A stretch of DNA of 62,921 nt, filler included, from Sphacelaria rigidula (lineage: Eukaryota), in NCBI GenBank assembly GCA_964200075.2. It is 9 parts of 9 records of this genome, joined end to end, with 100 filler letters (N's around TTAATTAATTAA, not from the genome) between each part and the next. Parts side by side here need not be neighbours in the genome. Positions count along the whole stretch, not along the records: positions 14,008 to 20,910 come from CAXNAA020017492.1; 8 more parts are not named here. The stretch is one strand, 5' to 3'. Shown piece after piece: positions 4,290 to 56,240 of this stretch. The notes beneath the pieces are model-generated. The model was given only the letters and a program-made list of their open reading frames with translations, made no database searches and had not been told where the DNA came from. Position numbers and translations under genes: made by a program. Every line of letters begins with the position of its first letter. Position 1 is the stretch's first letter.

Positions 4290-6099
4290 CTAAGGATACT
4301 CACCAACGTGAGCGATCTCCGGCACCACCAGCAAAGAGATCCCTTTCTCAAACAGGTGCAGTCAGATCTTGCAGGCAGCGAAACACCAGAGGCGGTGAGT
4401 GAGAGACGGTCAGATTACAAAGTAGACGAGCAAGTTATACTGTGGTACCGAGCAGCCAACGATAAGGAGCTGCTAACTGTGCCGAAAACGATGGTAGCTT
4501 ACCTATTGGCACTCGTGCATACACTCCACGAACATGTCGGAGTAGGCGCCACCCTTGCTCTGATACACGATCGCTTCCACTAGCCTACCATGACCCGTGA
4601 CACTAGACAGTACGTTCTATCGTGCAGCTGTAGACGACACCAGAAGGCAAACAGCCGTCAAATGGCAATGAGACCGGGGCGCACTTTACACCCATGGGCT
4701 GAGTTGGAAATCGACATACTAACCATTCATTGATGTGATGTCGCACCCGCGCGACAAGTACATTCTGCTGGTACTTGATCGCGCCTCCCGATTCCCGTTC
4801 GGATTTTCTCTGCCATCTAAGGATGCGGACGAGATCGCACACATCCTAGCAGAGTTATGCCTAACTTTTGATGTCACACAAATGATCCGCTGCGACAGGG
4901 ACAAAGAGTTCAGGGCTGATGTCGTCACGCATCTGTGCAGGTGGTTGAAGGTAGACATCGTTTTCGGGTCGTCGGACCACCCACGCGGTCAGGGAGCTGT
5001 CGAGCGACTTGGGAAATGGCTGTTGGACATGCTGTCAGAACTATGCAGGCTGTGGCCCCAGAGGTGGGATGAGTATGTCTCACCCGCCCTCTGGATCAAG
5101 CGCACATTGCCCGACACATCGCTCCCCTCTAACATGTCCTCTTTTGAGCTGCTGTTCGGCCGCAAACCGCGCACATCGCTAAACTCGCTCGTGCCCCTCT
5201 CACAAGAAGCAGAACCGAGCAAGGGACTAGATGCCTTCGTTGAACAGCGCAGACAGAACCTCCGTGAGGTGAGGATGGCGATGAACAAGAGGCAGGGGGC
5301 AAAAGCATCGTCGCGGGAGAAGGACAATACAGCCATCTCGAGGCCATCAACAGGCGTGTCGGTCACGGAAGGGAATCTGGTAATGGTGAGGGAGAGTGAA
5401 AGCTCCACGTATCGAGATGGCAGGGGCAGGAAGCTGCAGCACGACAGGTACACGGGACCTTGGACGGTGAAAGAGGTACTGATGGTCGGACACAGTCTCG
5501 AGGCAGTGATGCAAGGACGAAAACTACGTACTCGCACAGTAGCCCCGTCTGATGTCAAACCGTACCATGTACAGCCGCCGCACTTGAGACACTCCATTGC
5601 CGACGAGTTCGCCCAGTTCGCATGGGGATCGGACTTCAAGATATCGTCTTCACCCAACTCCTCACCCCGCCTCCTTACCCTAGTGAACCGCCGCGAGTCC
5701 AAATCGGGGAAAGGTGCAGGTTGGGAGTATCAAGGAAGGACGCAGAAGGGGGCGACATCAGATTGGCTTCCGGAGTGCAAAGTCCTGGAAAGCATCACAC
5801 CTCTGCAAATGGATGGCTTCCACGCACTGTGGTGTCTTTACCACCCGGCCAAGACACCAAGTACGCTATCTCGCCCAAGCATCCGCCACACACCCCTGTC
5901 ACGCAGTGACGCCCTAAACTTGTTCCCCATAGGTTATACGTTCTGGAAGAATTTCGGCGGGATCAAGCAGAGAGGACAAGTGTTCGACTACGGCAAGCGT
6001 TTCTGGAGAGTGCGATACGACGACGGGGACTGGGAAGCGAGAGAACTCCAGCAGCTAACGCAGTCGAGCGAGACGGCAACACCGCCAGTCACGAACTAG
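4290..6099 (+). pseudogene. Gypsy integrase with C-terminal chromo-like and Tudor-like domains
   Basis: QQRDP..VHTLHEHVGV zinc-binding remnant; rve core (VLDRASRF, RCDRDKEF, GAVER); GPW motif; C-terminal FPIGYTFWKNFGG..GQVFDY..WRVRYDDGDWE. Confidence 0.9.
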
Positions 6100-6904: not shown

Positions 6905-7004
6905 NNNNNNNNNNNNNNNNNNNNNNNNNNNNNNNNNNNNNNNNNNNNTTAATTAATTAANNNNNNNNNNNNNNNNNNNNNNNNNNNNNNNNNNNNNNNN
7001 NNNN
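6905..7004. other. Artificial contig spacer (N44-TTAATTAATTAA-N44); also at 13908, 20911, 27914, 34916, 41918, 48920 and 55921
   Basis: 100-nt spacers carrying stops in all six frames, recurring about every 7.0 kb. Confidence 0.99.
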
Positions 7005-13071: not shown

Positions 13072-13710
13072 CCTTATCGGGGACATACTGGTTACCGGCA
13101 CAGTATCTTGATACATTGCGGCACAATATCTTGACACATTATATGTAAATTTATTCCAGATCTGTTCATCGAGTTATTTTATATTTACCATCTTACGACT
13201 CATGCATTTGGGTTCTGTGGAGCTTTGTCATATTTTGGCTGTACTATTCACAAGATTTGAGAACGATTCGCACCACAGCATTTCACGTCTGAAGGTGTTG
13301 GAACAGACATAGTCACTTGTTGCGGTAGTTTGCAAGGGATGTTTAACACCTGCGGGTTATGTACCAAATCCGTCTAGTTTCATGTCCGAAAGCCCAACGC
13401 TATCAGCGCTTCCCCGGTTCACCCGGTCTAGTCGCGAAAAGCTAGTCGCAAAAATAAAAATAAGAATAAAGAAACAATAGACCACAACTCACGATACCGG
13501 TGGCCCGCATCCTATTGATCCTGTGTCAAACGTGCGTTATGGCTTGATCAATTCGCAGAGAAAGGGGGGAGCTCGCAGCAGCATTAAACCGGGGATTCTG
13601 TCGAATGAGGTTGATCAACGAAATGAGGTTTGAGGAGGCTAGCCAGTATGCGACAAAAACCCGAGGGAAGTACCGTCAACAAGTGCCTTCGATCGATACC
13701 GGGGGGGGGT

Positions 13711-13812
13711 GGGCGTACTCATTTGTTGCTTGCCTTCATCGTTTGACCATTGACCACGCCCCGTCTCGAAAGGTCGATAGTCAAACGACTAAGGCAAGCA
13801 ACCAATGAGTAC

Positions 13813-13816
<4 letters not shown>
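13711..13816. repeat. Palindromic copy of the ATGAGTACG micro-element
   Basis: Arms of ~45 bp (GGGCGTACTCATTTGTTGCTTGCCTT.. / ..AAGGCAAGCAACCAATGAGTACGCCC) with a ~16-nt loop, between a G run and a C run. Confidence 0.85.
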
Positions 13817-13843
<27 letters not shown>

Positions 13844-14007
13844 CACCCGCCCCCCCCCGCACGTCCCCACCCGCCCCGGCGCGCCCTCCCTCGCCTCCTC
13901 CCCCCCCNNNNNNNNNNNNNNNNNNNNNNNNNNNNNNNNNNNNNNNNNNNNTTAATTAATTAANNNNNNNNNNNNNNNNNNNNNNNNNNNNNNNNNNNNN
14001 NNNNNNN

Positions 14008-14225
14008 GACTTGACGGTCGACGAGGGAAAGGGACTGCTGGAGCCCTGTCGCGATAAAGAATAAAGACAAGCACCGCAGAAGGAAGGTGGGGTACTAAAA
14101 ACAAATAAAATAAAAAAAAGCTCCTGTTTTGACCTTCCTTCTGTGTGATCCCGGCTGGTGTGCCCACATATACCGAAAGGTGTAGACTGGTGCCCAGAAT
14201 AGATGGGACGACAACACAACACACA
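14008..14225 (+). mobile_element. SINE family A, cut by the contig start
   Basis: Colinear with 58740-58980 (ACGGTCG.CGAGGG.AAGGGACTGCTG..CGCGATAAA..TGTGTGATCCCGG..CCGAAA..TGTAGAC). Confidence 0.75.
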
Positions 14226-14639
14226 TTCTTTTTTTCACGTCTTAGTTTACTATGCCGTTCTGTTCGACTTTTTTCTCTTCCTTCTTTCCTTGAGCGAGTG
14301 TTTCGGTTGTGCTTTTTCTTGGGTACGTCTACCATGCGACCACGGCTGGACCCCTGGGGGGTCTGTTCAAGTGCGACAATCAATCAATCCACTAATCAAC
14401 ACAACCCACCCCGCCCGTGTGCCGCGAGTATTCTAGACGTGTTGAAAAACATGCATGCAAAATTGACGCTTGATGGGCACGTGTCCCCCCCCATCACGCT
14501 TGAATTATCATCACGTCAAAACTCGTTGGTTATACGGAGCAACACACCCCTTTCCTGGAAGCGAATTTTGAAGCCAACGCCGTGAGGTCGAAAATCTCGT
14601 CAAGAGCAGACCATACTCGCGACCTATCCGGAACATGTA

Positions 14640-14745
14640 CTTCTACTTTCCATTTTATATCCATTTGTCGCACTTTGAACCCCCCCCTGCCCCCCTCCTC
14701 GGGATGAGCCCGTGGTCTCAGGGGATCAACTCATCTCTCCCCCCG
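14640..14745 (-). mobile_element. 3' fragment of SINE family B
   Basis: Similar to ~40270-40365 (CATTT.TCGCACTTTGAACC..CCTCG.GA.GAG.CCGTGGTCT..CTCTCCCCC). Confidence 0.6.
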
Positions 14746-14752
14746 TTGCACA

Positions 14753-14790
14753 ATGGTCTTATGACTATGGCATGCATGATGATGAATACA
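14753..14790 (+). mobile_element. 38-bp micro-insertion (ATGAGTACA subfamily) with 14-bp TSD
   Basis: Flanked by CCCCCCGTTGCACA (14739-14752) and CCCCCCGTTGTACA (14791-14804). Confidence 0.8.
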
Positions 14791-14839
14791 CCCCCCGTTG
14801 TACAGCGGCAACTAGGCTAAGTATTAGTAGCCAACTTAC

Positions 14840-14889
14840 CCGGAGCAACGCTTGCTGTACTCAATGCCGTGCCATCCGTTGTCGTGCAC
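14840..14889 (-). CDS. Mannuronan C-5 epimerase-like gene, fourth visible exon
   Basis: CAG|GTG acceptor and GG|GTAAGT donor. Encodes VHDNGWHGIEYSKRCS, matching the epimerase HDNG.HGII.SKRC motif. Confidence 0.85.
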
Positions 14890-15264
14890 CTGTGTGGGTA
14901 CAACACAGGAGCGTACAGTAGATCAATGGGGAATCAGATCAGCGTCAGTTAGACCGGTTCGGAAATTCCCGCGAAATTTCCTCGGACGAAGATGGTGGAT
15001 GGTCTCGACCGTCCTTGGATACAAGAGTCGGCGGCAAAGTGGACAAGATACTGTATAACGTCCGCTGAGGATGAGAAATCGGAATAACGACGACCGCGAA
15101 ACCCGTCAGCAAACGAGCAATTTCACAGAGAATCCTACTGCGAATCAACTCTAATGGATGAGCAAGCTTTTCAAAGTCTTGGTTTTCAGCTTCTAAAAAC
15201 TGTGCTTGTCAGTTCTAGAGAGCCGTGGCCTTCAAGCCAAGAATATTGTGTTTGTGCTCCTCAC

Positions 15265-15380
15265 GTAGTTGTCAAATATGGTCATGCCATCGCTGTTGTC
15301 CTGCGGGTTCAGTCCATTGAGGTAGTTGTCGTACACCTCGTTGCCGCTCCAGCTGCTGCTGCCTTTCATACCGTAGCAGT
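15265..15380 (-). CDS. Mannuronan C-5 epimerase-like gene, third visible exon (active-site strand)
   Basis: CAG| acceptor and |GTGAGG donor. Encodes (Y)CYGMKGSSSWSGNEVYDNYLNGLNPQDNSDGMTIFDNY; phases match both neighbours. Confidence 0.88.
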
Positions 15381-15603
15381 CTGGACAGCGACGGGCGAGG
15401 GGGCGAGATCTTCAGTGTTTGCCACACCAAAAAGCAAGCAACAAAAAGCGCACCACTAGCTCTGCAAAAAGCAAAGCAACACCCGTGTCTGAAATATTTC
15501 GTTGGGAGAATTTTGCCAAAGCAAGCCACACGATGCCGTTCATTTGACGCCTGTCCAAAAAATCATAACATCGAAACCCTTACAGCCGGCGTCTTGAACC
15601 CAC

Positions 15604-15744
15604 ATGCGCCCATATAGTTGTCGTGGAGCTTGTTGTTGGTGAGCGTTCCGTACACGCCCAGCCTGTCGAAGAGCGTCACGTTGTCACCTCCAGGGTAGCG
15701 GTCGTCGAATCCCAAGACCTTCCACACGAGCCCATAGTCTTCGT
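15604..15744 (-). CDS. Mannuronan C-5 epimerase-like gene, second visible exon
   Basis: CAG| acceptor and T|GTGGGT donor. Encodes (D)EDYGLVWKVLGFDDRYPGGDNVTLFDRLGVYGTLTNNKLHDNYMGA; compare brown-algal YGLTWKVRGF..LFD.V.VYG. Confidence 0.88.
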
Positions 15745-16524
15745 CTGCTCTCGCATTTCAACAGCACAAAGCACAAAGTTGAACACAAACACGGGAAGCG
15801 TGCACATTTTGCGTTCGTGGGGCATGACAAAGGAGGTTCTATGCTAATATGAGCCGTCCTTGACTTTTGCACAGGTACTGTACAAGTGTGAGTTCGACTT
15901 TGGAACGCCCATCGATGGGCGTCTACGACGTTGACAGATGTATCGTACATGCGCGTTCGGCAACGCAAGCTTGCAAAGCGTCAGCACCAAATGCCATAGC
16001 ATCGACACAACGGCGGAATACGACAGCACGCGAGACTAGAGCGGACACGCTCAGGCAGTTTTTACCGGCAAATGTCTATAACAAATGTCCATACCAAGGG
16101 CACACCACACAGCACTCCTCTGCGGCGGTACTAGGACCGAACACGGTTTACTGAGGCAAAGTTGCCAAGTAAGAGGCAACGGTGATCCGCCACTAGACTT
16201 TGCCTTATTGATAAAAATGCTTCCTCCTTCCGAGCAAGCACGTTCAATGGTTCAGAAGCTACATTGAAATAATGCAAAACATGACCCCCCCACCCCCGCC
16301 CACCCCCCCCGGTCTCACCCGGCGCGCGCTCCGGTGTGTGTGAAATGTTACTATTATTTTGAGAGAATTGCAAAATCAGCTGGATGAGTCTTGACGTATA
16401 TCCGTTGCACGCGGCCTCATCGGGCACTTGTCAACATATTTGCATTGTACTCCTGCGCAGCTTACTTCACCTACCTCATGCCCCTCCTCATCCCCTCTTG
16501 TGTCTTTTGTACGCTGTGACTCAC

Positions 16525-16762
16525 CCAGGTCGTTGTGGTAATCCCCCTCGTTACCGAGGTACGAGATCTCGCTGTCTGTCACGTCCATGCGGGAAGTGAA
16601 CGCCTGGCCTTCCGACTCGCTGCTTAGAGCCGCGATGTAGGCCCTGCCCTCAAGACGCTCATCGGGTCCATCCAAAGAGGCATCGTATGACGTAATTGTG
16701 GTACCCATGATGGATATTTTTCCCGGTTGGGCGATGATGGACGCCGCCGAGTCCTCATCGCT
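16525..16762 (-). CDS. Mannuronan C-5 epimerase-like gene, first visible exon
   Basis: TAG| acceptor and G|GTGAGT donor. Encodes SDEDSAASIIAQPGKISIMGTTITSYD..GPDE..GRAYIAALS..RMDVTDSEISYLG; compare TSWD..PD..GRSYI..RMDI.DSEI.YLG. Confidence 0.88.
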
Positions 16763-17032
16763 CTAATGATATGGGGAAAATCGCGGGCGTCGCACGATGG
16801 GACTGTGTTAGAATCAAGCATATGTAGGATGAGGAAGCACGGACAGTGACGGTGACTCGTGTAGCGCGATCGACTGATCAGAAAACTGCACTCTACACTG
16901 TGGTTTTCGTCATGTCCCACCTCCCGGGATTTCCGCTCTAGGGCCTTGATAGATAGATAGGCGGGCTGGCGGTCTCTGTGAGCCGCTGGCGCCTGCTAAT
17001 GAACGCGAGGTATTCATCAGCCCCCGTGCGAG

Positions 17033-17074
17033 GTCGATCATCTTATGACTATGGCATGCATGATCATGAGTACA
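17033..17074 (+). mobile_element. Micro-insertion (ATGAGTACA subfamily)
   Basis: GGTCGATCATCTTATGACTATGGCATGCATGATCATGAGTACA flanked by CCCCGTG on both sides. Confidence 0.7.
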
Positions 17075-18470
17075 CCCCGTGATGAGAAGTCTTCGCGTTG
17101 CACCAGTTATTCTCGCGGATCACATACCGCCAGGCTTTGGGCCAGCGAATGGGCGCGCTAATGAACCCAAAATAAAACCACCACCCCCAGGCGCTGGGAT
17201 GACAGTCTCTCAGGTCATGGATATGGGCCACCAGGACCCGGCATTCGTACGTATGTGGGCAAGCCGATATGGAGATAATGCCAGACTGAGGAGAGGTGCG
17301 GCTACAACGAGCCGCCCCCTTGGTAGAGCATGTCAATAACGCATAAAGGACTGCCTCGAGTAGGAGACGTTCCCGAGTCCACAAGAGAGGGGGACCAATG
17401 TCTTGACGCCGTGTGTGGCTATGTTTTTTTTCAGGCGTTTCTGCCAAAGCGGGTGGTGGTGTCCGGCGTCTGAATTAACTTTGATATAGTAGCCAGCTAT
17501 TTCAGGAGTATATCGAATTGAACATAAGACCTACCTCAATATAACTTGCTACTAGTATACTGATCTTGATCATGAGATATTTAGCTCATTTGGCCCCCCT
17601 TTCCCCGTTTGCTCTCTACAGCGCTGGGCGCACAGCACGTGGAGTAGTAGCGTTTTCACTTATCGGACCTTGCTGTCAGATATACCACGTCTTGTGTGCT
17701 CGGACAAGGGGTCCGAGAGTCCTATTCGATTAGTGATTTTAGGTACAGTAGCTCATGAGCTGTCCGACGTATGAAGACTTTCAAAATCGATAACACAGAA
17801 GCTCAGGTGTTCGTTCATGATGAACAAATCTCCTCCCCCCTCACCACGTCGCCCCGCATGGCGTGTTCTTCGAAGCTTTCGACACGCGGCTTCACCTGCA
17901 CCCCCGCGATGCGGCTAAGATGATCATGTATCACAGTGACAATGGTTTACACGTCGCTGGACGGAATTTTCGAACAGTGTCGTGACACCGGGTATATCTG
18001 TGGCGTAGCTTCGGATTCGGGGCATTTTCGGCGACAATAAACGATGGCTAAGTTACTCCAAAGTTCGAAATTCGACACCTGAAAAACAAATCTTGACGAG
18101 AGGAGTAGAGGGGGGCGATTTTTTAAATATATATATACCTGATTGTTGAGCTCGCCAGAGGTTTTACGGTTTTGCCAGCTGTTACTCTCCACATCACCAC
18201 GTAGCGCTTGTAGGGATATCCCTCCCGTTCCCAGGAGCTTTGTTCTTTGCAACTTACGGGCAGCAACGTTGGACAACACCCCCCCTCTCTTGCACGTGTG
18301 TGAGAAAGGGATCAACGATTTCATCCAAGAGTATTAACGTAGGGATTTGTCATAATCGATAGGATGAGATGTAAGCATTATGGTAATGCCTTTCCGGTCC
18401 CAACAGGTGTCGCTATCCGTATGTTACGGGTCAACAAACGGTAGCCAACAGCCCCCAAGCGTACTCGGGG

Positions 18471-18522
18471 TGTACTCATGATCTTGCATGCCATAGTCAT
18501 ACGACCATCGACCTCAACCTGT
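18471..18522 (-). mobile_element. Micro-insertion (ATGAGTACA subfamily)
   Basis: Flanked by the degenerate direct repeat CAAGCGTACTCGGGG / CAAGCGAACTTGAGG. Confidence 0.65.
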
Positions 18523-18776
18523 CAAGCGAACTTGAGGAGGGAATGAAAAAAAATGATCTAGCGAATATGAAGGACGCCGGGGTATCATAAATCAAGACGA
18601 TGGGACACAGCGTTCGAGGAGACAGTGAGTCGATTTCATCCTTGGAGGAACACGGTGAAGGGTCGCAATTAATCAATAGGGTGTAAGTGTTGTAGTGATA
18701 TATTTTCGGTCCCGACAGGCATCGCCATCAGTACGCTACGGGCCAATACGGTAATAGCAGCCCTGTAAGTGTGGGG

Positions 18777-18902
18777 GGGGCGTACTCATTTGTTGCTTGC
18801 CTTAGTCATTTGACCATTGACCACGCATCCCTTTCGAGACGGAGCACCGTTCCTACTTCTAATAGAGCCACCTCCAACATTCTGGCGCTCATTACGTTCC
18901 TT
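18777..18902 (-). mobile_element. Micro-insertion (ATGAGTACG subfamily) with 16-bp TSD
   Basis: CCCTGTAAGTGTGGGG at 18761-18776 and again at 18903-18918. Confidence 0.8.
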
Positions 18903-20159
18903 CCCTGTAAGTGTGGGGAGGGGATTAAACGACTTCATCCCCAGGATCGGAGTGTAGGGCAGTTATCATGAGGTAATGGGGTATTATATAGTCATTAATT
19001 AATGGGGTATTATATAGCGGCTGTGTAGATACTTTTCCCATTCCCAGGAGTATCCTCATTCGCACGCTACTGGCGAAAACGTCAGGTGACACCCCCTGAG
19101 CGTGCTTGGGGGGGAGATGAAACGATTTCATCCCCTGGGTGGGACAAGAGGGATCCACTAATCGTCAGGGACGGGTGCAGACGTCCTCGTCGTGCGTCTC
19201 CCGTTTCCAAGGACATCGCCATTCGTACCTCATAGGCCAAAACGATCGATATCACCCCCTAGGGGTGCACGGCCAGGAGGGGGTGCGTTGATATTATCCC
19301 CTGGGGGATGGGGATATCCGAATCTCCGGATATTCTACTGTGCTAGTAATACACCCATTATAGTCAGGGTCAGAGCCATTAGTCTGAAATACACGGCAAA
19401 ACGGTACATAATGCCCCCCCTCGATACGGCGGATATCACTCGTCGGGGATGATCGGTATTTTCCCCTGCCGAACTATGCATCCTCCGGCCAAATCCAAGT
19501 TCACCCAATCGACGTTCTTCAGTAATACCCGTCAAGTACCAGGGGTGCACAAAACAAATTCGGCAGAGATACGTACGATCCATAGGCTATGCCCGCGACA
19601 ATACCACAGTCAACACACGAATTTGTTTGCAAGCAGATAAAGCTCAACCACCTACATGACAGCCGGGCAAAAAACACAGCCCACGCACGAGAACTTATCT
19701 ACTTCTGTGCAGTATCAAATCAAGATAAGAGCGGAGCAACACATAAACGGTCAGCAACGACATGTTTTCTCCAATACAGAACAAAGAGTGTTTAGATACT
19801 CATTTGCGGCACAATAACCCATGCGTACAGAGGATATTTTCCAACGGACGAGGGTAAACACAAAAAGTAACCGGGTTGCCTGCTTGTCAATCGTGTACGA
19901 TAAGCTATCGGCTGCTGGCGGTGATCCTTCGTCCGTTTGTGTGGTTCGTTTGTGTGAGGGGTTCGCTTCGCTGGGCGTGTGCGTGCTGTCGTGCTGAGCG
20001 CGCGCGATATGATGCGCCGTCTCTCTTGTGCAGGGTGGATTGAAAACTGTATCGGTTGCCGGCGACAGCACCGTAGTGAAAGCACAATTTCGTTTGCGAG
20101 CAAGTAGAGCCCAACCAAGTGCATGACAGCCGCCGTCAATCCAGTAATTTCTTGCCATA

Positions 20160-20210
20160 CAATATGCGGGTCACGGCCTAACTCGTCTGCGTCGATGAGG
20201 TATTGCTTTG
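20160..20210 (-). repeat. Short dispersed repeat; second copy at ~43875-43925 (+)
   Basis: GCAATA.CTCATCGAC.CAGACGAGTT.GGCCGTGA.CC.CATAT is shared by both copies; possibly a LINE 3' end. Confidence 0.55.
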
Positions 20211-21079
20211 AGCAGCTCGTCATCAGAAATAAAGAAGAGAAAAATGAAAGAGCGAAAGAATGAAACAATAAACATGAAGGAAGGAATACAAAGACAAGAA
20301 GACAGGGCCAGGATCATTTCCGAGGGGGGAGGGGTGGGGGGAAGGGTGCACGCAGAAGAAACAAAAAACAGACAAGAAACCACCAAGAACAAGAGATGGA
20401 CAAATCAGAGATAGAAACCAAATACAGCGAATATTGAAATATCGGATGGCAATTGATGTGACCCAATTTATTTTCTCATCGGTGAAGGAACGAGCTACTG
20501 GATGAGGGCGTGTCTTGAGAGCTGGGCCAGCCTAGAGGCTGCATGAAAGTTTGCAGGCGGATGTGCCGGGCAAAATATAGAGTTGACCCCTGAAATTTGG
20601 TATGGACAATGCACAGAGCATATTAAAAAAGTCGGGAAGAAGCACATGAAGGTTTTGTTTTTTTCTTCGTGAGATAAGGGCGTTTTGCTGAAACCTGAAA
20701 ACGGATTATTGCCCTTAACCCTTTTGGGACCGGGGACCGGACCTCCAGAACGACCAATGAGGCTGGTCAGGAATGACGTGTCTGGCGTCTAAACGAAACA
20801 GTGGCGTGTTGCTGAAAATCCGCATATATATGTAACTGCAGGGTTATGACGAAGACCGAAAGTTTCATCTAGTCTGTTTTCAGGTGCAGGGTGCGCATTA
20901 GGTGGTGTACNNNNNNNNNNNNNNNNNNNNNNNNNNNNNNNNNNNNNNNNNNNNTTAATTAATTAANNNNNNNNNNNNNNNNNNNNNNNNNNNNNNNNNN
21001 NNNNNNNNNNCGTCTAGAATCGTTAGGAGCCTCTGAACCAGACAGAATTCCGCGAAAAAAGTGCACCCCTCCCGTAGCA

Positions 21080-21330
21080 TTGCTCTGCTCCATCTCGAAA
21101 GGGATGCGTGGTCAACGGTCGAACGACTAAGGCAAGCAACAAATGAGTACGCGCCCCAATAAGTGCCTGGTTGGGCAGGCAAAATCTTGACGTAAATCGA
21201 AAAGGGAAAAGCCGAGCACAACGAGGATCTGGGAATTCAACGCTTGGGTTCGTTCTCGTCAATGTCGCTCATATATATATATGAAGCGCTTCATGCAGCC
21301 TGAACCCTAACATCAGGCGCTGTGTGACAA
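21080..21330 (-). mobile_element. GACACT-MITE body joined at its G run to an ATGAGTACG micro-element
   Basis: 21160-21325 matches 45455-45580 (CAGCGCCT.ATGTT.GGGTTCAGGCTGCATGAAGCGC..ATTTACGT.AAGATTTTGCCT); 21085-21151 matches the micro-element. Confidence 0.7.
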
Positions 21331-34699: not shown

Positions 34700-35016
34700 G
34701 TCCGGCGAGAACCCGGTGTGCTCCGCCCCGGCTTTGTAGGGGCGGACCGTCGGCGTCGGTTGGCGATGACGCTATGGAACACGCCACTCACTACGTGAGC
34801 TAGGCAACCAGGTTACCATATTTTTTTGTTGCGCTCTTGCCTTTTTTTTTGCGGTAACCATGATGGTAGTCGAACTAGATCATGTTGTGCGGCGTGGGAA
34901 AACCTCAATTCCGCANNNNNNNNNNNNNNNNNNNNNNNNNNNNNNNNNNNNNNNNNNNNTTAATTAATTAANNNNNNNNNNNNNNNNNNNNNNNNNNNNN
35001 NNNNNNNNNNNNNNNA

Positions 35017-35398
35017 GGGGGGGGGGCGTACTCATTTGTTGCTTGCCTTAGTCGTGTGACCATTGACCACGCATCCCTTTCGAGACGGAGCATTACCACG
35101 CATCCTACGATAGGTGTACTCATGATCATGCATGCCATTGTCGTAAGACCGTTGACCTCGAGAGGGTGGGGGTATTTAATTGCACGAGAAAAAAGGCTCA
35201 AAAGTGTGACAGACGACCCGCCACACTCGCAGTGCGCTTATATTTGGTTCAAAACGGTGTCAATCGGTATGAACGAGCGTTATATATCTATAACAAGCTC
35301 GTTCGAGCAACCGTTGCTCGTTTCAAGGACGATTTGACTCGGAATTTCGAGCAAGAAATGGCCCAAAATATCCCCCCCCCCCTATCGTAGGATGACTC
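35017..35398. mobile_element. Stack: micro-element plus a GAGTCATCCTACGATAG-TIR MITE carrying a second micro-insertion in its G run
   Basis: CATCCTACGATAGG at ~35101 is inverted to CCTATCGTAGGATGACTC at ~35381; the same terminus occurs at ~6853. Micro-elements at 35017-35092 and ~35115-35158. Confidence 0.65.
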
Positions 35399-54882: not shown

Positions 54883-55861
54883 CATAGGTGGCCCCCCACT
54901 CCCTCACTACTGACATCAACTTGGACCACGAATCGTTTGGAGAAGTCAGGGAAGTGCAATACTGGAGCAGTCGTCAAAAGTCGGTTCACTTCCGCGAAAG
55001 GTTCGTCATGTTTTGTTTTCCAATGTTTTGCTATTCCTTTGACCGCTTTTTTCTTTGTGAGGTCTACCAAGGGTGCGGTGATTTCGGCCGCATTTCGGGT
55101 AAACGTTCGCACTAAATCAAACATGCCGAGCAATGAGCGCAACTGCTTGTTGTTAGTTGGTTTGGGTAAGTCTAGTATTGCTTCAATACGGCCGTCACTT
55201 AATTTGATACCGTCTCCTGACAGAGTGTGTCCTAGGCATTTAATTTCCTTTGGTCCAAACCGTGTTTTGACCGGTTTCAGGGTGAGGCCCGCTGGTTGCA
55301 GCGCCTTGAGCATGCCCTCAAGTAGAGTTAGGTGGCTTTCCCACGAAGAACATGCGATTAAATCGTCCATGTGCACCAGGAGACCGCTTTTCGGTCCAAA
55401 GCGTGAGAACTTTGAGAGCCATTATTCGTGAAAAAATAAATGGGGATGGCGCTAATCCGAATGGGGGGCGATTGAATACCCATTCATCTTTGCTCGTGAT
55501 GCAGGCTGTCTTCTCCTTTTCTTCTTCCGCTATAGGGATTCGGTGGAATGCACTCTGCACATCATAGACAGAAATGTCCTTTGCTCCCGCCACCGTGTCA
55601 ATATGGAATTTCATTATTGCTTTCAGCGACAATAGTTACCGCAGAGTCCCAAGGGCTAGCTCTTTGCTCAATGATATCGTCTCTTTCCATTTCGTGTACA
55701 CATTTGTCGATGACCTCTTTTACCCTTGGGTTGCCCCTGTAGGGCGGTCTGTCCACTGGTTGTGTACCCGGCTGGAGTGGAAATGTAGCTTCACCCATCG
55801 TGCAGCATCCTAACTCCCGCGGACTACTGCCGAGATAGCCCCCCCCCCGAATCGACCAAAT

Positions 55862-55920
55862 GGGCTGTGGAAGAAGTTGTGGGAAGCTGGGATCAGAGGA
55901 AAGATGTGGAGAATGGTCAA
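55862..55920 (+). pseudogene. Non-LTR reverse transcriptase fragment
   Basis: GLWKKLWEAGIRGKMWRMV matches the LINE RT L..KL...GI.GK motif. Confidence 0.6.
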
Positions 55921-56240
55921 NNNNNNNNNNNNNNNNNNNNNNNNNNNNNNNNNNNNNNNNNNNNTTAATTAATTAANNNNNNNNNNNNNNNNNNNNNNNN
56001 NNNNNNNNNNNNNNNNNNNNGGGGGGGGGGGGGGTGCGAGTGTTGACAGTTTACAAGGAGAAAGAGAAATCGTGACAACTGTCGGTGCGGAGTCGCCCTG
56101 CTATCGGTGAAGGCTACGCCTCTAAACGCTGCCGATGATGGGGTTCATGAAGTACCCATGGATGTTGTCATGTTTTCCCGTAGAGAGACGGAAAGTGTGA
56201 TGGCATGCAAGTAATACGGGCGGCGATCGCGATCACTCAC

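Follow-up and report, generated by a model that had tools for sequence, protein, structure and literature searches.

Short copies at C runs in Sphacelaria rigidula as probable truncated insertions of a C-tailed LINE

The DNA analysed here, referred to as the window, is a 62,921-nucleotide stretch of the Sphacelaria rigidula assembly GCA_964200075.2. It is made up of nine pieces, each 6,901-6,904 bases long, with N44-TTAATTAATTAA-N44 filler between them (8 linkers, e.g. 6905-7004 and 13908-14007), and contains nine short sequence copies that abut a C run at one end. These copies are very probably 5'-truncated insertions of a brown-algal non-long-terminal-repeat (non-LTR) retrotransposon in which a single open reading frame (ORF) encodes an APE-type endonuclease and a reverse transcriptase (RT); the element is most likely a (C)n-tailed member of RTE-X. 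Its description as a long interspersed nuclear element (LINE) with a C tail is well supported, and the RTE-X label, matched by the features described in a table of Ectocarpus elements and by Ectocarpus relatives, is likely to be correct. In a preliminary description the copies had been treated as a separate micro-insertion family. That view is given up here, because their 45-bp end is coding sequence for the C-terminus of the LINE protein.

The positions of the copies and their division into two alignable subfamilies, A and B, agree with the preliminary description, as all nine were recovered by BLAST of three window copies against the window and by alignment. E-values between copies are 1e-8 to 1e-31. 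The copies are found mainly in piece 3 (14008-20910), with others at the end of piece 2 and at the starts of pieces 4 and 6 (Table 1). Their alignment has the conserved core GGTC.ATGGTC..ATGACTA.GGCA.GCA....ATGAGTAC, and the fixed end of all nine reads ...ATGAGTAC(G/A), i.e. ...GTAC(G/A), followed by C. A degenerate pattern of this end has 5 matches in the window where 1.0 is expected, and at least 5 were obtained in 0 of 100 shuffles. The C runs abutting the fixed end measure 29, 10, 8, 6, 4, 4, 3(+9), 2 and 1(+4) bases. The opposite end is variable, as had been proposed, giving elements of 38, 45, 45, 45, 46, 53, 66, 66 and 122 nt.

The RT/endonuclease ORF sought behind these copies was found when metagenome contigs were scanned with the end pattern; the one locus obtained, L001, is a marine metagenome contig of 4,464 bp. 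The minus strand of L001 carries one ORF of 1242 amino acids, with no second ORF in the 4464 bp, and the contig is cut at the 5' end of the element. Pfam identifies Exo_endo_phos at residues 53-274 (E 3.1e-11) and RVT_1 at residues 623-872 (E 7.5e-33). This arrangement, with the endonuclease N-terminal to the RT in one ORF, is the layout of an APE-type LINE; a Cys/His motif (CPCG...H....C) was read by eye near the C-terminus. The ORF ends ...GCVVNGQMTKASNK* and the element terminates as ...AAA-TGA-GTACG-C8, which places the stop codon 5 nt before the element end. The last 149 nt of the L001 element match window 18904-18756 at 91% (blastn), and its final 126 nt correspond to subfamily A. Six blastn matches between L001 and the window, at 88-97% identity, comprise A copies and the RT-coding stretch 55858-55915, and tblastn aligned 38 amino acids with 89% identity to P0001 at window 18902-18789. 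The reading frame and stop codon are intact in all five A copies. Given the position of the stop codon in L001 and the matching A copies, the conserved 'fixed end' consists of the codons for the C-terminus of the LINE protein followed by 5 nt, and subfamily A is the LINE itself.

A tenth copy in the window is an RT-coding fragment, and all ten copies are collinear with the 3' region of L001. The stretch 55858-55915 of this tenth copy corresponds to element positions 2172-2229 of L001, within the RT domain, at 93% (blastn, and also found by tblastn), and the copy would be about 1.6 kb long if complete. Upstream of it stands C10+GAATCGACC (55839-55857), the form expected of a target-site duplication (TSD) that begins with C, the 3' side of which lies outside the window. 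The earlier statement that the autonomous partner is not in the window therefore holds for the full ORF, which was found on L001, and fails for parts of it, which are present at 18781-18902 and 55858-55920.

The proteins closest to the L001 ORF are metagenome sequences at 88% and 73% identity, followed by those of Ectocarpus sp. CCAP 1310/34 at 55-71%. P0002, P0005 and P0009 share its endonuclease/RT layout. P0002 and P0003 are 86-118 residues longer and relatives reach 1328-1360 amino acids; the contig end (L001 4423-4464) probably truncates the L001 element on its 5' side. The extra N-terminal stretch of the relatives (...VFGVPSDMTRIEFK...GEHFRVTL...) is without a Pfam match. Residues 560-1242, searched against 1.84 billion representatives, gave 106,505 matches at E<=0.001, a number to be expected of a LINE RT, and in the ESM Atlas and two protein libraries the relatives are only 'hypothetical' APE+RT clusters. 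The motif [VIL][VAI][NDS]G occurs in the last 30 residues of 13 of the 208 proteins compared, against 50 of 4,100 random 30-residue windows, and its 13 carriers include the L001 ORF and its closest relatives, down to 35-39% identity. The Ectocarpus protein P0010 ends ...GAPSRKGRVANGQMTTASNK and L001 ends ...GAPSRKGCVVNGQMTKASNK. The C-terminal peptide, or else its coding RNA, is conserved in this sub-clade. Neither the end pattern nor peptide patterns of the ORF had any match in viral contigs (0 in each case).

The C run was also followed in public contigs. Nine sequencing runs from three studies contain the 6.9-kb piece, and the contigs of four of these (X1, X3, X4 and X6) were examined. Beyond the 3' end of B (17078) the consensus continues as a C run of about 16-19 bases in 355 (X1), 329 (X3) and 43 (X6) contigs and then diverges, and before the A end (18773) a G run is present in 637, 648, 399 and 71 contigs. 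Overall the runs measure about 16-20 C or G. As hundreds of contigs show the end together with the run, the C run belongs to the element end in general and is no accident of these loci. Summed depth in single-copy bins is about 10-45 in three DNA-like runs, and element bins reach 1e5 to 3.7e6, orders of magnitude higher; the family is therefore very abundant. X6 is a run guessed to be RNA, in which element depth is not readable as expression. The stretches 14008-14469 and 20476-20910 also have very high summed depth in all four runs, which points to further high-copy repeats, and in 21 contigs of X1 an A-type end follows 14218 immediately, G-run side first (joint 14218|18773).

Flanking duplications were scored by comparing 30 nt on each side of a copy, upstream of its 5' and downstream of its 3' boundary, and taking the best ungapped match, with about 407 sites at other C>=4 runs of the window as controls. 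Direct repeats had been described at five copies, and the two longer perfect or near-perfect ones are borne out. At A3 (18761/18903) the 16-bp perfect repeat extends to 20 bp with one mismatch (score 17, 0/406 controls), and at B1 (14739/14791) 14 bp match with one mismatch (score 11, 2/408 controls). The 15-bp repeat at B3 (18456/18523) is weak (score 7, 21/408 controls), and the 7-bp CCCCGTG described at 17033, which lies one base from the 5' boundary of B2 and directly at its 3' boundary, is not significant alone (65/408 controls). The repeat of about 7 bp described at 35115 is not upheld, since no discrete repeat is present there and C runs stand on both sides of B4. A1, A2, A4, A5 and B4 show no repeat; A1 and A2 are head-to-head, A5 abuts an N linker, in which its downstream flank falls, and B4 lies in a C run. 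The TSDs are variable in length (7, 14, 15 and 16-20 bp) and both convincing ones begin with the C run next to the element 3' end.

The region 18200-19330 consists of degenerate units of about 160-330 bp, each with a C-run...G-run segment and a hairpin-like GGGGAGATGAAACGATTTCATCCCC, two of which have received LINE insertions. These units were obtained from a repeat search and aligned by hand-picked ranges; Tandem Repeats Finder reported nothing over 17900-19600. In the uninterrupted paralogous units U3 and U4 the duplicated segment is present once, and in U1 and U2 it is present on both sides of the insert. Because the duplicated segments fall on the same alignment columns, U3 and U4 serve as paralogous empty sites. 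Other repeats of the window have internal C runs (38011, 55839, 38220(-), 45410, 45575(-), 49069(-), 6869(-) and 35372) and keep their sequence on both sides of the run, e.g. ...ctgccgagatag-C10-gaa.cg.cca. Further forms are ...gacacttt.tacgatag-C7-9-aaaa.gtgca...ggcaaaatcttcacgtaaat and C11-14-tatcgtaggatgact. At least two such repeats served as LINE targets (35113-35159 and 55858); in the first of these the flanks of B4, aaataCCCCCaCCC... and CC-tatcgtaggatg, match the unbroken ...aaatatC11tatcgtaggatgact at 35372. The 22 nt between B4 and A5 (35093-35114) hold GGATGCGTGGT, a short duplicate of the LINE's own ...GGGATGCGTGGTC, which may have arisen by a template jump at the A5 5' junction. 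The sequence downstream of the A2 tail is C-rich up to the end of the piece. At 13900-13907, 35016-35026 and 56021-56034 piece ends lie in or beside C/G runs of 8-14 bases, and one piece ends within a LINE copy, an indication that long homopolymer tails broke the assembly at some of the piece ends.

Subfamily B aligns with A over the last 45 nt with one extra base in B, and the homologous 3' end common to both is about 60 nt. Upstream of B at 18515 a common sequence is found in 84, 89 and 67 contigs, with an agreement of 0.76-0.77 and still alignable with A; as B copies continue in this way, 45 nt is not the full B element. The upstream consensus from the public contigs has a stop in the frame of A four codons before the window copies begin, and the window B copies contain no stop before the tail. 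No head resembling a short interspersed nuclear element (with an RNA polymerase III promoter or derived from a small RNA) was seen for B in the window. The in-frame stop, in a consensus of 0.76 agreement, suggests that B is probably a non-coding, non-autonomous partner that shares the tail, and not a second autonomous LINE.

Target-primed reverse transcription at oligo-C/G had been put forward for these insertions, and this reading is essentially right, being supported by the LINE 3' end, the 5' truncation, the C-first TSDs of 14 and 16-20 bp and the C runs in contigs. In L1, this process uses a nick at TTTT^AA and a poly(A) tail. Here, the bottom strand would be nicked by the endonuclease directly after a G run (5'-G(n)^N), and the oligo-G 3'-OH set free would anneal to the oligo-C in which the element RNA ends and prime cDNA synthesis; at 14739-14804 the primer would end ...ACGGGGGG-3'OH. 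The top strand would then be cut 7-20 nt downstream, giving a variable TSD, and an early stop of reverse transcription would give the extreme 5' truncation. As polyadenylation cannot add C, the tail must be templated; it would be copied from the tail of the source copy, with its length shifted by slippage and by the site at which the primer anneals. The extra C beyond the target, none at 14791, four at 18777-18780 and 29 at 13814-13842, fits such annealing and slippage. Each insertion would leave a new C run and old tails would become new targets, which would explain the adjacent (35027-35159), nested and tandem copies and the C run found upstream of a 66-nt unit (see below). The head-to-head pair at 13701-13842 has G on its left and C on its right, and it may be speculated that both ends of one break were primed.

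The proposed process resembles that of L1 in the homopolymer tail complementary to the nicked target, the TSDs that begin with the tail base and vary in length, the 5' truncation and the mobilization of non-autonomous RNAs that share the tail. It differs in that the homopolymer is C, which must be templated and cannot come from polyadenylation, and in that the ORF ends 5 nt from the element end; in addition, no separate ORF1 is present in the 4.4 kb of L001. The C-run tail and target represent a natural variant of the logic of L1 poly(A) tails and T-run targets, in which the pairing of tail and target matters and not the particular base. They raise the question of how such a tail persists, given that it cannot be added once the RNA has been transcribed. 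For work on this genome it is relevant that the family is so abundant, that long C/G runs coincide with several piece ends and that tiny copies lie beside genes.

Elements of this type have been catalogued in Ectocarpus. The curated table of its transposable elements lists RTEX-1_Ec32 (5,867 bp) with a 'single EN-RT ORF; (C)n 3'' and a TSD given as 'C-rich', and RTEX-2_Ec32 with '(C)n termini/TSD' (PMC12477816). Two non-autonomous elements, RTEX-N1 and RTEX-N2, share 60-100 bp of 3' end, RTEX-N1 being annotated as '60 bp 3' end 83% RTEX-1/RTEX-2; can be present in tandem' (PMC12477816). RTEX-1b has 3007 copies totalling 1,059,065 bp, and as their mean is about 350 bp for a 5.5-kb element they are heavily truncated (PMC12477816). 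The (C)n tail is not discussed in the available main text of that paper. The family in the window is like RTEX-1/RTEX-2_Ec32 in its EN-RT ORF, its (C)n 3' end, its C-rich TSDs, its abundant, mostly truncated copies and its brown algal host, and like RTEX-N1/N2 in having a partner, B, with a common 3' end of about 60 bp and tandem occurrence. The C-terminal peptide of P0010 from Ectocarpus is nearly the same as that of subfamily A. The comparison with the RTEX_Ec32 elements was made by described features, and the named Ectocarpus proteins are those at 55-71% identity to the L001 ORF; the window family may be a sister family of the Ectocarpus elements in another brown alga.

Templated 3' repeats other than poly(A) that are used for priming are also a feature of RTE-1 and RTE-2_Ec32, with (CAA)n, and CRE-1_Ec32, with (CA)n (PMC12477816). 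The repeat unit here is instead a single C, and for those families the table as available carries no note on TSDs. CRE elements have the domain order RT-EN, whereas the L001 ORF is EN-RT. No other report of a C-tailed LINE was found in the literature, in which papers on RTE-X were judged by the title and the start of the abstract. The retroposon system had been called unusual, and it is indeed uncommon among LINEs, but it is not new, since the Ectocarpus table lists (C)n RTE-X elements; what is added by the present analysis is therefore detail and no discovery. Three features are described only here, namely that the conserved end is coding, how tail, nick and TSD are arranged, and that 5' starts recur at 45 and 66 nt.

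Several points weigh against the interpretation as truncated insertions of a single-ORF RTE-X element primed at C/G runs. TSDs are convincing in two of the nine copies, with two weak and five absent or untestable. No empty allele was seen among 15 shown of 910 joints, and contigs break at repeats. The 'single ORF' holds only for the 4.4 kb of L001, which is cut at the 5' end, and membership of RTE-X comes only from the table features and the Ectocarpus relatives. We infer where the nick falls, that the G primer pairs with the C tail and that the tail is templated. Finally, the 5' starts are not random: in the alignment B2, B3 and B4 have an identical start, from which that of A1 differs by no more than 2 nt, and another start is common to A4 and A5. 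At 18846, the position of the A4/A5 start, 184, 169 and 162 contigs (X1, X3 and X4) continue into A and a G run, which in element orientation is T and a C run upstream of a 66-nt unit. Recurrent starts and a C run before the 66-nt boundary are unlike simple stochastic truncation.

These starts and the upstream T and C run are what would be expected if the 45-nt B and 66-nt A sequences were discrete non-autonomous elements, minimal RNAs made up of an RT recognition end and a C tail, and the tail-sharing RTEX-N1/RTEX-N2 of Ectocarpus, which 'can be present in tandem' (PMC12477816), offer a parallel. Such micro-elements are nonetheless unlikely. Many B copies run on upstream into common sequence, A3 and the copy at 55858 are plainly longer pieces of the LINE, and insertion into older C tails also puts a C run upstream of a copy. 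Moreover, Rfam gave 0 matches at E<=1 on both strands of L001, with no self-cleaving ribozyme, the RNA folds of the 3' ends are no stabler than those of shuffles (z 0.19, -0.01, 0.85 and -0.72), and no compensatory support for the A-type terminal stem was seen in B. A ribozyme setting the 66-nt 5' boundary was considered and dropped on the same Rfam result. It is a tentative and rather doubtful extension that the last 45-66 nt both code for the C-terminal peptide ([CR]VVNG...) and act as a cis signal that is sufficient with oligo-C, which would make the 45- and 66-nt units mobile and let the family seed its own targets. The recurrent 5' starts, the upstream C run in hundreds of contigs and the non-coding mimic B are compatible with this reading; if it is true, these units would be among the smallest retroposons known, and each insertion would plant a C run from which nested or tandem arrays could grow.

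The extremely short inserts (38-122 nt), the five of nine copies with no detectable TSD and the extra bases at 5' junctions could also be produced without an endonuclease, if fragile C/G runs break and LINE cDNA or RNA ends are patched in as filler. The head-to-head pair 13701-13842, bordered by a G run and, at its opposite edge, a C run, looks as if both ends of a break had been primed. This explanation is improbable, however, as the TSDs of 14 and 16-20 bp and the constant position of the C run at the 3' junction fit staggered cleavage, the APE domain of the ORF is apparently complete, and the same end-plus-C-run junction recurs in hundreds of contigs; the Ectocarpus table also gives C-rich TSDs for complete elements of 5.5-5.9 kb (PMC12477816). 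The same pair, with its inverted arms (13714-13759 and 13761-13813) flanked by G and C runs, could be taken for an intact DNA transposon or miniature inverted-repeat transposable element, the other copies being ends of such elements with terminal inverted repeats. The remaining seven copies are solo with one fixed end, though, the flanking repeats are unequal in length, and the copies read in frame as the 3' end of a LINE ORF. With one inverted pair among nine copies and no TSD of fixed length, a DNA transposon is extremely improbable and for practical purposes refuted.

Table 1. LINE copies, their flanks and a neighbouring gene in the window
Feature	Position	Strand	Description
Copy A1	13714-13759	-	46 nt; tail GGG-T-G9 at 13701-13713 (+ strand); head-to-head with A2
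Copy A2	13761-13813	+	53 nt; 12-nt internal gap relative to L001; C29 tail at 13814-13842
Copy B1	14753-14790	+	38 nt; 14-bp TSD CCCCCCGTTG(C/T)ACA at 14739-14752 / 14791-14804
Copy B2	17030-17074	+	45 nt; 7-bp CCCCGTG at 17022-17028 / 17075-17081
Copy B3	18471-18515	-	45 nt; 7 extra nt at 5' junction (18516-18522)
Degenerate 15-bp TSD of B3	18456-18470 / 18523-18537		3 mismatches
Copy A3	18781-18902	-	122 nt; codes for last 38 residues of LINE ORF and stop
Flanks of A3	18761-18776 / 18903-18918		perfect 16-bp TSD; four extra tail bases at 18777-18780
Copy A4	21086-21151	+	66 nt; 5' start same as A5; followed by CGCCCC; TSD not found
Copy A5	35027-35092	-	66 nt; G10 tail at 35017-35026, one base from piece start
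Copy B4	35115-35159	-	45 nt; inside C run of another repeat (35113..35159)
Tenth copy	55858-55920	+	RT-coding LINE fragment, 63 nt; cut by piece end
Spliced gene	16764-16525, 15744-15604, 15380-15262, then <=14886	-	exons joined in an X6 contig; GT..AG introns

Two of the B copies are close to the expressed, spliced gene of Table 1. The gene is a homologue of mannuronan C5-epimerase, its exon 1 matching brown algal epimerases at 68-75% identity. B2 is found 322 bp before the ATG (16708) of this epimerase-like gene and B1 about 90 bp past its last mapped exon piece. The window is otherwise rich in repeats, with Gypsy- and Copia-type ORFs that contain RT, RNase H and integrase domains. One of these, at 4735-6099 (+), encodes a Gypsy-type integrase and, at the C-terminus, a PTM/DIR17-like Tudor domain that Pfam scores below its curated cut-off (E 3.8e-4). 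In Ectocarpus, the Tudor-bearing Gypsy-10_Ec32 is described as the first transposable element reported with such a domain (PMC12477816).

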